64,000 bases of DNA from positions 4,224,001-4,288,000 of the forward strand of contig OY776510.1 in the NCBI GenBank assembly GCA_963675665.1. The letters run 5' to 3'. The position numbers were made by a program, and so were the translations under genes. The DNA is from Spirochaetia bacterium. Lineage in GTDB: Bacteria; Spirochaetota; Spirochaetia; UBA9216. This document shows, in pieces, positions 33,759 through 56,104 of the stretch (within the stretch, counting starts at the first letter, position 1; each line of letters begins with the position of its first letter). The notes beneath the pieces were generated by a model. It saw nothing but the letters and a program-made list of their open reading frames with translations, was not told where the DNA came from and ran no database searches.

Positions 33759-34387
33759 CAAATCAGCCCTTGGTATTCGCTCTGCCGAAAGGCAGGCTTA
33801 TGGAAAAAACGAAGGATCTTTTCAAGAGTTTTGGAATAGATTTTTCATTCGAGGATCGAAAACTTGTTGCCGACGACAGTTCGGGAAACTACAGATTTTT
33901 CCTGGTTAAAAACTCCGATCTGCCCACTTACGTTAATCACGGAATAGCCGGTATGGGAGTCTGCGGATCAGATGTTATCTATGAATCAGGATATGATTTT
34001 TATAAACTGCACACTTTTTCTTTCGGCGGAACAGTTATGTGTCTTGCGGGATTGAAAGGCGCTCATAATTACGGAAACGATGCAGCATTAAAGATTTCAA
34101 CCAAATTTACAAAATTCACCCGCGATTATTATAACCGAAAAAACACTCCCGTAGAGGTAATCAAACTGAACGGTTCTGTTGAACTCGGCCCGGTACTGGG
34201 GCTTTCGCCTTATATTGTAGATCTTGTTGAAACAGGAAACACGCTTAAAGCAAATAATCTTGAAGTAATAAAAACACTTGAAGAAATCAAGGTTCATCTC
34301 ATAGTCAATCCGGCCTATTACAAACTAAACTATAAGCGTATAAACAAATTTGTCGAAGATATAAGGACAGGAGAAAATTTAAAATAG
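33755..34387 (+). CDS. hisG: ATP phosphoribosyltransferase (short form)
   Basis: ALPKGRL, DLPTYV, KLNGSVEL, IVDLVETGNTL. Confidence 0.96.
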   Translation: MTNQPLVFALPKGRLMEKTKDLFKSFGIDFSFEDRKLVADDSSGNYRFFLVKNSDLPTYVNHGIAGMGVCGSDVIYESGYDFYKLHTFSFGGTVMCLAGLKGAHNYGNDAALKISTKFTKFTRDYYNRKNTPVEVIKLNGSVELGPVLGLSPYIVDLVETGNTLKANNLEVIKTLEEIKVHLIVNPAYYKLNYKRINKFVEDIRTGENLK

Positions 34388-34479
34388 CTTCCATGCTATT
34401 TTAAATTTTTGAAGTTTGTTTTTAACAAACTTCATTTACCCATGCTTGCCATCCATGGCAAGAAGTTCTAAAGCAGGAG
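34374..34479 (+). repeat. Three-hairpin structured intercistronic element, copy A (hisG-hisB)
   Basis: 15-bp stem/TTCCAT loop; GAAGTTTGTT-TTT-AACAAACTTC; CTTGCC-ATCCAT-GGCAAG; then AAGTTCTAAAGC-AGGAG. Confidence 0.75.
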
Positions 34480-34484
34480 AAAGA

Positions 34485-35072
34485 ATGGAACCGAGAAGTA
34501 CGGAAATAAAAAGAAAGACCAAAGAAACCGACATTACTGTAGAGCTTAACCTCGACAGCAGTAAAACGCCCGATATTAACACCACCCTGCCCTTCTTTGA
34601 TCATATTCTTTATTCAATGGCTTTCCACGGCGGATTCTTCCTTAAAATAACCGCAAGCGGCGATATCGACGTCGATCCCCACCACCTGGTTGAAGACACA
34701 GGACTTGTTCTTGGAGACGCATTTAAAACTGCAGCATCCAAAGGCGGCGCCATCAGCCGGTTCGGGCACTTTCAAATACCGATGGACGACTCCCTGTCCG
34801 AAATAACGCTCGATGCAGGCGGAAGGCCTTATCTCGTATACAGAGCCGAATTCCCACAGCAACAAGCCGGCAGTTTCGATATTTTTCTGATTAAGGAATT
34901 TCTTAAGGCCTTCAGTGATAAAGCCGGAATTAACCTTCATGCCGAATGCAGATACGGCGAAAACAGCCACCATATGGTCGAAGCATTGTTTAAATCACTC
35001 GGCAAAGCCCTTGGGCAGGCCTATAAAACAGCCGAAGTCAATAAAGTGCGCTCAACAAAGGGAACGTTGTAA
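34485..35072 (+). CDS. hisB: Imidazoleglycerol-phosphate dehydratase
   Basis: RKTKETDI, FFDH, DPHHLVED, PMDD, NSHHMVEALFK, STKG. Confidence 0.97.
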   Translation: MEPRSTEIKRKTKETDITVELNLDSSKTPDINTTLPFFDHILYSMAFHGGFFLKITASGDIDVDPHHLVEDTGLVLGDAFKTAASKGGAISRFGHFQIPMDDSLSEITLDAGGRPYLVYRAEFPQQQAGSFDIFLIKEFLKAFSDKAGINLHAECRYGENSHHMVEALFKSLGKALGQAYKTAEVNKVRSTKGTL

Positions 35073-54105: not shown

Positions 54106-55332
54106 TTACTCTGCAAGAGTGGATTTTACTTCTTCCGGATCAAAATCCTCATCAAAAACCTTGACGATCTGACCGCCTTTAATAATTGCAAGTTTAGGCA
54201 CTTCTTCTATGTTCATCCTGTTTGAAATACCCTTCGATTTGTATATATCTACTTTGGTAACACCGTGATGCTCTGCAATCTGACGTTCAAGGTCTTCAAC
54301 AAGACTCAAACATTCGCGACAGCCTTCTTCTGATGCATCATATACAAAGACTACACCGTCACGCGCAAGAATCTGGCTGTGATACATTTCTTCTTCTGCA
54401 ATGTATTTTTCAGCCGCATAACCCGCAATTGCCCCGTCGCCTACTGCAGTTGCAACCTGTTTCAGGAACTTGTCAGTTACGTCACCTACAGCAAAAACCC
54501 CTTCGATGTTTGTATTCTTGTTTTCGGTTGTAATTATATAGCCCTTGTCGGTCATCTTTACCTGATCTTTGAAAATCTCGGTGTTGGGTAGATAACCTAT
54601 AAACTCAAAACAGGTCGGGACATTTACAACGATTTCTTTCTTGTTTTTAACATTCTCAAGGACTACACTCTCCAGCCGATCAGAACCTTCGAATCTTTTT
54701 ACAACAGTATTCCAGACAAACTCCATTTTGGGATTTGAAAGAGCTTCAGCTTTAGCTATCTCGTTACAATCCATTTTACCTTCATCATGTATAACTGAAA
54801 CTATAACCTTGTTGGCAAACTTTGTAAGAAACATACCCTCTTCAATCGCTGCATCACCTGATCCGATAATCAACACATCTTTGCCGGTATTTGCCGCAGC
54901 ATCACAAGTCGCGCAAAAACTGATTCCTTTATCAAAAAGATAATCTTCCTCGTTGACTGCGCCTGTAACTCTGGGTCTTCCGCCTGAAGCAATAATAACA
55001 ACCTTACACTTATAGATATTTCTAAAAGTTTCTACAATTTTTACTTCTCCGCTTAAATCAACGGATTTCACATCAGTACCTTTAAACTTTACACCGAATT
55101 TCTTTGCCTGTTTTTCAAAAAGGCTCATCAGCCCCAATCCGGTTGTACCTTCGGGAAATCCCGGATAGTTCTCAATTTCATTTGTATATGTTGCAAGTCC
55201 TCCGACGAGAGCTTTCTCTATCAGCAGCGTCTTCAGTCTTGCTCGTCCGCAATAGATTCCGGCGGTCAATCCGCCGGCGCCCCCGCCGATAATAACTACA
55301 TCATATTCTTCTATCTTCTTTTCTCTGGCCAT
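54106..55332 (-). CDS. Thioredoxin reductase-like flavoprotein with C-terminal thioredoxin-like extension
   Basis: IIGGGAGG, CATCD, GSGDAAIEE, FAVGDV..QVATAVGDG; extra ~95 aa with CREC and EEVP; ATG 55332 with AGGAGG SD. Confidence 0.88.
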   Translation of the reverse strand: MAREKKIEEYDVVIIGGGAGGLTAGIYCGRARLKTLLIEKALVGGLATYTNEIENYPGFPEGTTGLGLMSLFEKQAKKFGVKFKGTDVKSVDLSGEVKIVETFRNIYKCKVVIIASGGRPRVTGAVNEEDYLFDKGISFCATCDAAANTGKDVLIIGSGDAAIEEGMFLTKFANKVIVSVIHDEGKMDCNEIAKAEALSNPKMEFVWNTVVKRFEGSDRLESVVLENVKNKKEIVVNVPTCFEFIGYLPNTEIFKDQVKMTDKGYIITTENKNTNIEGVFAVGDVTDKFLKQVATAVGDGAIAGYAAEKYIAEEEMYHSQILARDGVVFVYDASEEGCRECLSLVEDLERQIAEHHGVTKVDIYKSKGISNRMNIEEVPKLAIIKGGQIVKVFDEDFDPEEVKSTLAE

Positions 55333-55535
55333 TATTCCTCCTATTAAAAAGTTCACGCCATGGAAGGCGTATAGTGAAGGGAAGTTTGCATTGGCAAACT
55401 TCAAAATGATAAAACACACGGAGGTGTTTTATCATTCCTCCTATTAAAAAGTTCCCGCCATGGGAGCTGAAAATCAGCCTGGCCGGCGGGTCTGCAAAAG
55501 GAAGTTTATAAAAGGCTCAGCCTTTTATAAACTTC
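55333..55535 (-). repeat. Structured intercistronic element, tandem copies B and C
   Basis: 30-bp direct repeat at 55334-55363 and 55434-55463 (1 mismatch, 100-bp period); hairpins GAAGTTT..AAACTTC at 55381-55402 and 55501-55535; GCC..CCAT-GGC hairpins. Confidence 0.8.
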
Positions 55536-55570: not shown

Positions 55571-56104
55571 CTACATGAAAAACTTGACAAGAAGCTTGCT
55601 TCCTACCCATGCGCCGAGAAACAGAAATACCGCATATACCCATCCGGATAGAGAAAATGAAGTAATACCGCTGAAAAGCGCGCCTATGTTACAGCCGAAT
55701 CCGATTCGGGCACCGTATCCCATAGCCAGTCCGCCCAAAACAGCTGCGACAACCTGTCTCCACGATTTAATCTTCTTGATTTTAAACTGGGAGGCCATAA
55801 GGGTTGCAAAAAGAGCGCCGAGAATAATCCCGATGTTTCTCATACTGCCGGGATGGTTTAAAAATCCGTTCTCAAGGGTTTTCTGCGCTCCTTCAGAAGC
55901 AAAATAATACCATTTATCAACAGTCCCTCCGACTGCTTCATACAACCAGGCTCCCCAGTTGGCAAGCACTCCTGAGACACCCCAGGGACTGCCGGTAGAA
56001 GCAAGGGTATAGATCTGAAAAACAGATAAAAGAACCGCTCCCGTCAGATAAGGCCAGGCGTCCTTAAACCACATCTTATAGAATTTATTATCTTTAAGAG
56101 CCAT
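55571..56104 (-). CDS. YeeE/YedE thiosulfate-transporter family, C-terminal half
   Basis: WPYLTGA, PWGV, GGLAMGYGARIGFGCNIGA. Confidence 0.87.
   Translation of the reverse strand: MALKDNKFYKMWFKDAWPYLTGAVLLSVFQIYTLASTGSPWGVSGVLANWGAWLYEAVGGTVDKWYYFASEGAQKTLENGFLNHPGSMRNIGIILGALFATLMASQFKIKKIKSWRQVVAAVLGGLAMGYGARIGFGCNIGALFSGITSFSLSGWVYAVFLFLGAWVGSKLLVKFFM

Follow-up and report, generated by a model that had tools for sequence, protein, structure and literature searches.

A palindromic TD-2-family repeat inserted at Shine-Dalgarno sequences in a Spirochaetia genome, and its possible link to IS110-family elements

Results

Repeat units in the hisG-hisB and yeeE-trxR spacers

The spacers between hisG and hisB and between a yeeE-like and a trxR-like gene of a Spirochaetia bacterium contain three copies, here called A, B and C, of a short palindromic repeat that ends at a Shine-Dalgarno (SD) sequence. 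Both spacers are located in a 64,000-nt stretch of DNA (contig OY776510.1, positions 4,224,001 to 4,288,000; hereafter the window), and the analysis was extended to the source genome of the window (G000; 5.15 Mb, a single contig, 96% complete). The hisG-hisB spacer very probably represents one copy of a TD-family repeat that is palindromic, mobile and inserted at SD sequences. It is not a member of a new family, and it looks selfish rather than like a newly found regulatory RNA. Genes were named from their Pfam domains: HisG, IGPD (hisB), Sulf_transp (yeeE-like) and pyridine-nucleotide oxidoreductase (trxR-like). Copy A consists of three perfect inverted repeats on the + strand between the HisG and IGPD genes, with the hisB ATG at 34485-34487, 3' of the AGGAG of the copy. 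Copies C and B are arranged in tandem on the - strand, between the Sulf_transp stop codon at 55571-55573 and the oxidoreductase ATG at 55330-55332. The features of the three copies are as follows.

34368..34376, + strand: upstream direct repeat CAGGAGAAA of copy A, the original hisB SD sequence, now within the end of hisG; relatives have a single ACAGGAGAA-N5-ATG here
34374..34409, + strand: hairpin 1 of copy A, with arms 34374-34388 and 34395-34409, a 15-bp stem and the loop TTCCAT
34410..34434, + strand: hairpin 2 of copy A, with arms 34410-34420 and 34424-34434 (11 nt), a conserved base GAAGTTT/AAACTTC and a variable top
34445..34462, + strand: hairpin 3 of copy A, with arms 34445-34452 and 34455-34462 (8 nt), a G+C-rich stem and a TCCAT-containing loop
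34463..34482, + strand: 3' tail of copy A and downstream direct repeat CAGGAGAAA (34474-34482), with the working SD AGGAG at 34475-34479
55438..55535, - strand: copy C, without hairpin 1; hairpin 2 at 55501-55535, hairpin 3, which has an additional inner stem, at 55454-55490
55438-55453, - strand: tail and AGGAG of copy C, the AGGAG doubling as the 5' core of copy B
55337..55442, - strand: copy B, a full unit, with its AGGAG core at 55438-55442 and hairpin 1 at 55405-55436 (loop CTCCGT)
55381-55402, 55355-55370 and 55337-55354, - strand: hairpin 2, hairpin 3, and tail with AGGAGG of copy B

The inverted repeats and their coordinates confirm a preliminary description of the window, according to which the three copies share these hairpins and end at an SD sequence, and copy C has no first hairpin. 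The start of the element was placed there at 34374, whereas the unit begins at 34368, with the upstream direct repeat CAGGAGAAA. The motif GAAGTTT-N2-30-AAACTTC occurs three times in the window as compared to 0.02 expected occurrences, and none of 100 shuffles reached three. The RNA folding z-scores relative to shuffles were -5.2, -6.5 and -5.7 for copies A, B and C, respectively, and the opposite strands folded nearly equally well (-5.0 for copy A and -5.5 for copy B). A scan with a terminator consensus flagged hairpin 3 and the tail of copy B, and flagged nothing in copy A.

The repeat family and its identity with TD-2

Across the G000 genome, the GAAGTTT-N2-30-AAACTTC motif was observed 66 times. 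A profile built from 31 oriented copies gave 101 matches at E<1e-2 and 82 at E<1e-5, and copies A, B and C matched this nhmmer profile at E = 4e-20, 8.9e-26 and 4.2e-9, respectively. The 82 units group into 72 loci, and the units are non-coding and about 100-145 nt in length. The further copies anticipated from a genome scan were thus recovered, and the count of three given in the preliminary description is correct for the window, as compared to about 80 in the genome. The consensus unit starts with AGGAGGA, hairpin 1 (ATGATAAAA.. stem, loop C-NTCCRT-G) and TT, continues with hairpin 2 (constant base GAAGTTT/AAACTTC, variable top), a linker of about 10 nt and hairpin 3 (CYGCC..TCCATGG..), and ends with AATTTTTTATAGGAG, followed by N5-8 and ATG. 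Units at different loci share at most 90% identity (median 66%). At G000:C1:1652319-1652891, five units with 93-99% mutual identity form a tandem array, which has a period of 112-113 nt and lies directly 5' of a 267-aa open reading frame (ORF).

The element had been called unannotated, which agrees with the Rfam scan of the whole window at the gathering threshold (0 matches), but not with the permissive scan, in which copy B was identified as TD-2 (RF03162, clan CL00124; 44.1 bits, E = 1.5e-5, + strand, 55354-55440), below the gathering score of 48.7. This alignment spans positions 1-98 of the TD-2 model and includes all three stems, with AYGGA loops on the outer two. Copy A showed no TD-2 match at E<=10, being too diverged for the model, and copy C showed none in the permissive Rfam scan. 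In the G000 genome, the TD-2 model gave at least 33 matches at E<=0.01, of which at least 18 were above the gathering score (best 67.5 bits), based on scores for 150 of 681 candidates. The TD-2 matches fall on the strand that is antisense to the genes. TD-1 was absent from the permissive Rfam scans of 20 loci, although the TD-1 model itself was not run. The family is thus a known one in Rfam, and the novelty that an Rfam search was to decide on is lost.

TD-1 and TD-2 were presented in 2007 as candidate RNAs and reported to be specific to Treponema denticola (Weinberg et al. 2007, PMC1950547). That report describes covariation and modular stems in the TD motifs, with TD-1 usually 5' of genes and overlapping the reverse complements of TD-2 (PMC1950547). 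The G000 units and Rfam TD-2 have the same three hairpins in the same order, AYGGA-type outer loops, and a middle hairpin with the base (A/G)AGTTT..AAACT(C/T). Unlike Rfam TD-2, the G000 units add an AGGAG-flanked module, consisting of a 5' end that resembles that of an insertion sequence (IS) and a 3' T-rich segment with AGGAG, and they are located at start codons. Whereas the TD motifs are treated as candidate RNAs in the 2007 report (PMC1950547), they behave as inserted DNA in G000. The TwoAYGGAY RNA (RF01731) likewise has hairpins with AYGGAY loops, and sub-threshold matches to it fall on the TD-2 strand (17 bits for copy A), but all matches are under its threshold of 43 bits, and the G000 units have an extra middle hairpin.

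TD-2 matches were found in 10 of 151 sampled genomes of the class. These are G000 and four members of its family, four genomes of one genus (2.7-2.8 Mb, taken as T. denticola-like), and one genome with a weak match. In the family of the window itself, 7 of 11 genomes have TD-2 matches.

Covariation and folding of the units

In an alignment of 36 units, 94.6% of the cells were paired as compared to 77.4% in shuffles, and 143 double-sided changes were counted as compared to 37.8. The covariation score was 0.423 versus 0.110 in the shuffles, none of which (0 of 500) scored as high, and slid controls yielded 41-46% paired cells and scores of 0.06-0.08. Double-sided changes were observed at 21 of 25 predicted pairs, and one-sided changes of the G-U type in only 9 of 891 cells. 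The compensatory stem changes that had been noted in the window are thus borne out on genome-wide copies.

The stems of 76 distinct units, read on the sense strand, comprise 2108 pairs, of which 2018 are Watson-Crick, 17 G-T, 23 A-C and 50 other mismatches. There is no tolerance of wobble on either strand, and the pattern is that of perfect DNA palindromes. Given the absence of a G-U excess and the equal folding of the two strands, the covariation is no proof of an RNA function. Correction of palindromes at the DNA level by template switching is a known mutational process, and it could yield such compensation with no RNA function involved. Palindromic repeats that covary strongly need not represent a functional RNA. 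In 33 units, the accessibility of the SD gave no clear design signal: on average, the 5' GGAG is predicted to be unpaired with a probability of 0.33, the working SD with 0.39 and the start codon with 0.51. The ATG right after the 5' AGGAG is predicted to be paired in these units (median unpaired probability 0.01).

Pairing was also compared at two orthologous sites. In a 95%-identical run contig that has the hisG/hisB unit, the changes T34378G and A34405C convert a T-A pair of hairpin 1 to G-C. At a site shared with genome G004, G000 retains hairpins 1 and 2 only, and the bases of hairpin 1 differ while the pairing is preserved.

Insertion at Shine-Dalgarno sequences

Comparison with relatives revealed empty sites, as had been suggested as a check on the preliminary description. 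The hisG/hisB spacer is absent in all six of six relatives, where ACAGGAGAA-N5-ATG, or a sequence close to it, occurs once, hisG overlaps the start of hisB by about 25 nt, and the SD lies inside hisG. G000 has CAGGAGAAA, the unit, CAGGAGAAA and agaATG, with a period of 106 bp. The insertion has replaced the C-terminus of hisG, which by visual inspection reads ...TGENL K-stop as compared to ...TGEAKWNLERRK-stop, and the new hisG stop codon TAG (34385-34387) falls inside hairpin 1 of copy A. A 91%-identical contig (run X6) has the empty hisG/hisB site, and the 95%-identical run contig has the unit. The junctions upstream of the large and the small subunit of acetolactate synthase both have a plain SD-ATG in four of four relatives and partly deleted units in G000. 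In the yeeE/trxR spacer, four of four relatives have unrelated sequence.

Of the 72 loci in G000, 64 precede an SD and the start of an ORF (>=60 aa), 5 precede a copy of an IS110-family element and 3 precede neither. Those five IS copies themselves precede a gene, so that 69 of the 72 loci are linked to a gene. The sense-strand orientation seen in the window is therefore not random but holds genome-wide at these 69 loci, and the upstream ORF is co-directional at 56 of the 72. Sense orientation is no argument for an RNA, because insertion in a fixed orientation at the asymmetric AGGAG accounts for it just as well. A bias with respect to the replication strand was considered and rejected, as 49 units are on the leading and 33 on the lagging strand, and orientation tracks the gene. 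The downstream genes are unrelated in function, including IGPD (histidine), both acetolactate synthase subunits (branched-chain amino acids) and the pyridine-nucleotide oxidoreductase (redox).

Insertion puts the AGGAG of the downstream gene on both sides of the unit. Beyond this core, flank identity within units was barely above that between units, in a comparison inflated by the inclusion of units internal to tandem arrays, and we therefore limit the claim of a flanking repeat to the AGGAG core and to 9 bp at hisB. The units are small, non-coding and multi-copy, their sites show presence and absence with a flanking repeat, and their ends are common to an autonomous IS. These are characteristics of MITEs (miniature transposable elements with inverted repeats).

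One of the units is found next to a riboswitch. A molybdenum-cofactor riboswitch (RF01055, 66.2 bits, L006 206-325; G000:C1:1791990-1792320, - strand) abuts and overlaps a unit (L006 about 101-230) at the 5' end of the latter. The SD controlled by this riboswitch seems to be where the unit inserted, shifting the working SD about 110 nt from the aptamer.

An IS110-family element with the same ends and target

The G000 genome contains 15 copies of a 1.39-kb IS with 98.8-100% identity (for example G000:C1:3764801-3766185, L001 201-1585), none of them in the window, encoding a 370-aa protein with the domains DEDD_Tnp_IS110 and Transposase_20. In all 15 copies, the left flank ends with AGGAG, and the right end reads ..GACTTTTTATAGGAG, followed by the N5-8 ATG of the gene; the right end brings a replacement SD, TATAGGAG. 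The IS copies and the units take the same position and orientation relative to the downstream gene (15 of 15 IS copies, 69 of 72 unit loci). The left end of the IS aligns with the 5' ends of the units for about 33 nt, reaching the loop of hairpin 1, and the last 12 nt or so of its right end have TTTTTATAGGAG in common with the 3' ends of the units.

A 14-mer from the left end occurs 36 times in G000 as compared to about 0.12 times by chance. These occurrences represent the 15 IS copies, 17 scored units and 2 units identified by eye, and 2 plain gene starts; no element with only hairpin 1 between two AGGAGs was found among them. Five of the 15 IS copies are located directly behind a full unit and two more behind unit remnants, whereas 8 to 10 are at SDs without a unit. 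The junctions between tandem units have the sequence expected of joined IS ends.

The 5' non-coding region of the IS is predicted to be structured (z = -4.6), with two similar modules, each capped by GGUCYGCGAGACC and each with an AGGAG. By analogy, this region fits the two-loop bridge RNA of IS110 elements. Candidate guides were identified by eye in the 5' strands of the modules, which are complementary to an A-rich spacer plus ATG and to the left end of the IS.

Relatives of the IS with 52-79% protein identity were found in Oceanispirochaeta, Marispirochaeta, Treponema/Treponemataceae, Leptospira, and Syntrophales and Desulfobacterales metagenome-assembled genomes (Spirochaetota, Desulfobacterota). 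Both ends and the SD-N5-8-ATG position are kept in these relatives, and SD homing is therefore a property of the whole IS clade. The unit profile matched nothing within 700 nt of 80 loci with IS relatives.

A second IS110-family element, encoding a 387-aa protein, is located at G000:C1 about 553740-555270 and in 6-7 other copies. It sits in another palindromic repeat, with the insertion point between ..CCTCT.ATAA.CCC......GGG..ATTAG and CAGAGGTTCC. One of its copies, near 2621185, splits hairpin 1 of a unit.

Discussion

Origin and spread of the units

What is observed here is the repeat family, its identity in Rfam, its location as insertions at SDs, and its sharing of ends and target with the IS; the mobiliser and the purpose of the hairpins are inferred. 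With moderate confidence, we suggest that the unit descends, as a non-autonomous derivative, from SD-homing IS110 elements, and that their recombinases move it or did so in the past. The unit is a small, non-coding, palindromic DNA element of the TD-1/TD-2 family that has become SD-homing in this lineage. It integrates in one orientation at the AGGAG of a ribosome-binding site, such that the old AGGAG stays at its 5' end while its 3' T-rich segment with AGGAG re-supplies an SD 5-8 nt before the start codon. At hisG/hisB, such an insertion split two overlapping genes and supplied the new stop codon of hisG. The IS110 recombinase and its putative bridge RNA would recognise the IS-like ends of the unit around the common AGGAG core. 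Since the 3' end of each unit rebuilds the preferred target, tandem arrays would arise and IS copies would come to dock behind units. We read the hairpins as DNA palindromes, hairpin 1 representing an IS-type left end with its inverted complement and hairpin 3 a stem-loop just upstream of the target, and any RNA effects on operon mRNAs would be side effects. Mobilisation by IS110 elements is the best available account of what the units and the IS have in common (their ends and core, their target and orientation), and also of the tandem arrays and the docking of IS copies.

Several results weigh against this account. The IS is present in only 1 of the 11 family genomes (G000), as compared to 7 of 11 with TD-2, and its copies encode identical proteins, whereas the units are old and diverged; the IS has thus arrived recently. 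No homologue of the IS was found at E<=1e-10 in the four T. denticola-like genomes, each of which has at least 21 TD-2 matches, and by eye the T. denticola-like copies at 12 loci have the three hairpins but no 3' SD module. Conversely, none of five genomes carrying IS relatives has TD-2 matches. The left-end 15-mer counts in these five genomes are 2-14, with no excess on the scale of a repeat, and in the two genomes compared (9 and 11) they correspond to IS copies among the matches listed. The predicted right half of the candidate guide showed a moderate fit to the 15 flanks (3-7 of 8 positions in the five that were counted), and its assignment is tentative. Pairing has been maintained in place at the two orthologous sites, which is unexpected for a purely selfish, decaying repeat. 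Mobilisation by IS110 elements requires that the small units outlast repeated gains and losses of such IS elements.

The most serious competitor, which we nevertheless consider unlikely, is that the unit is an independent palindromic repeat, similar to sequences of the repetitive extragenic palindromic (REP) type, with a mobiliser that is unknown or lost, and that the IS110 element only homes to it, its ends and bridge RNA having evolved to match an abundant SD-type target. Insertion of IS110 elements into repeated palindromes is documented (PMC12288879; bioRxiv 10.64898/2026.03.19.712850), and the second IS110 family in G000 occupies another palindromic repeat. In genomes that lack the IS, the units are widespread and of old age, and 5-7 of the 15 IS copies are docked at unit 3' ends, but the other 8-10 copies are at unit-free SDs, and the common left end covers about 33 nt and enters hairpin 1, far more than the matching of a target requires. 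Moreover, the ends of the IS are conserved in relatives from other phyla, in genomes without TD-2 matches (0 of 5), and therefore belong to the IS lineage rather than having been copied from a local repeat. We give still less weight to a cis-acting RNA in operon mRNAs that is useful to the host, spread by insertion and retained by selection. Such an RNA might be an intercistronic stabiliser, a partial terminator, or an insulator that hides a decoy SD and ATG in hairpin 1 and offers a fresh SD after an A/U-rich tract. Consistent with such roles, the units are co-oriented with genes and mostly have a same-strand ORF upstream, compensatory change has kept pairing at the two orthologous sites, and the ATG after the 5' AGGAG is predicted to be paired. 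Hairpin 3 of copy B and its T-run resemble a terminator, and hairpin doublets of the same type are located 3' of tRNA genes and in both rRNA-operon-like regions. However, copy A has no terminator-like site, the working SD is predicted to be only about 39% unpaired, relatives have no units at three orthologous junctions, and the downstream genes are unrelated. With 17 G-T versus 23 A-C among the stem pairs, there is also no wobble to mark the strand, and both strands fold equally. The proposal of a new structured cis-RNA in the preliminary description is weakened by the sites that are empty in relatives, by the unrelated downstream genes, by stems that are almost purely Watson-Crick with no G-U excess on either strand, and by the presence of TD-2 in Rfam, on the opposite strand.

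A role for that opposite strand, as an antisense TD-2 small RNA with two AYGGA hairpin loops that bind a GGA-recognising protein such as CsrA, appears improbable. CsrA binds GGA in hairpin loops, and G000 has a single CsrA gene (G000:C1:3853309-3853467; PF02599, 89 bits). The TD-2 matches are antisense to genes, and tandem T. denticola-like copies approach TwoAYGGAY (37-39 bits versus the threshold of 43). Against this, no antisense promoter or terminator was identified, the orientation of the units is set by the downstream SD and not by an antisense unit, and the antisense strand shows no G-U excess (23 A-C versus 17 G-T in the sense reading). Closest to refuted is recognition as single-stranded DNA by a HUH-type transposase (IS200 or REP-associated tyrosine transposase, RAYT), the enzyme class to which the preliminary description attached its REP/MITE-like alternative. 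A multi-copy, palindromic, intergenic repeat would suit this class, and a repeat of this kind, inserted at sites that are empty in relatives, is what remains of that alternative. Yet the Pfam model Y1_Tnp (PF01797) had 0 matches in the whole G000 genome, while the same search was positive in 6 of 14 control genomes; the orientation of the units is independent of the replication strand, and the element with which they share ends belongs to the IS110 family (DEDD).

Comparison with other mobile systems

In ISPpu9/ssr9 of Pseudomonas putida (IS110 family), a small RNA module is reported to be mobilised on its own by the IS110 transposase (PMC12288879). As described there, ssr9 resembles the units in being a short non-coding module with IS-type ends and solitary copies that relies on an IS110 transposase for its spread. 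It differs in that ssr9 has few copies and is usually attached to the IS, whereas in G000 the units number about 80 and are old and diversified, the IS has arrived recently, and mobilisation of the units is presumed. For ISPpu10, a stem-loop encoded by the target is described to aid IS110 target recognition (bioRxiv 10.64898/2026.03.19.712850). This stem-loop is G+C-rich and located just 5' of the insertion point, which resembles hairpin 3 of G000, about 12 nt before the AGGAG at which 5 of the 15 IS copies are docked. Unlike for ISPpu10 and the REP-targeting IS110 elements, most IS insertions in G000 are at plain SDs without a stem-loop. The target in G000 is a translation signal present before most genes, and not a single repeated intergenic sequence as for the REP-targeting IS110 elements.

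The units are comparable to REP sequences and the bacterial interspersed mosaic elements (BIMEs), and to the REPIN-RAYT system, in being short, abundant intergenic palindromes that are sometimes in tandem and co-transcribed in operons. They differ in that G000 has no RAYT/Y1 transposase, and in their three distinct hairpins, their exact position at the SD and their fixed orientation relative to the gene. Correia elements are bacterial MITEs that are small, non-coding, multi-copy, co-transcribed and insertion-polymorphic, and that fold in mRNA. The G000 units are also small, non-coding, multi-copy and insertion-polymorphic, but their ends form no simple long terminal inverted repeat, their flanking repeat is the AGGAG core, and they are likely to be partnered by a DEDD/IS110 recombinase and not by a DDE transposase.

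Implications

As a broader and more tentative proposal, TD-1 and TD-2 may be non-autonomous partners of a previously undescribed, multi-phylum clade of SD-homing IS110 elements with bridge RNAs, both of which would insert between SD and start codon with a replacement SD, the hairpins being kept paired over the long term. If true, such elements would be able to spread into the junctions of operons, separate genes that overlap and disconnect SDs from the control of riboswitches, with no silencing of the gene downstream. Homing to a ribosome-binding site while bringing a spare one would give access to a near-universal, tolerated landing site, and the IS clade would provide bridge-RNA systems from nature whose target is defined and conserved. 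The variant with flanking SDs and its connection to an IS110 clade that homes to SDs both appear to be new; the literature searched, supplements excluded, contained no account of mobile TD motifs or of an IS110 element at SDs. A family that has been an orphan candidate RNA since 2007 gains a concrete identity as inserted DNA. For genome annotation, the units matter in that they alter gene ends, such as the C-terminus of hisG, as well as operon spacing and possibly riboswitch coupling.

Hairpin doublets and a tRNA-like sequence

In the hairpin doublets, a variable hairpin is joined through TT(T) to a GAAGTTT..AAACTTC hairpin, and both hairpin 3 and the SD are missing. Such doublets were observed at G000:C1 88043, 88354, 90066, 94975, 4030095-4032253, 3219067, 4690592 and 4758493, including positions 3' of tRNA-Ala and tRNA-Gln, in two putative rRNA-operon regions, and at a site that is occupied by two full units in G004. 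The doublets may be old unit remnants or an RNA signal used by the host. One of them adjoins a sequence similar to the 3' part of a tRNA, with T-arm, acceptor stem and CCA (G000:C1:4690540-4690600, - strand), for which ARAGORN makes no call and which may represent either a fragment of a tRNA or tmRNA or an old attachment site.

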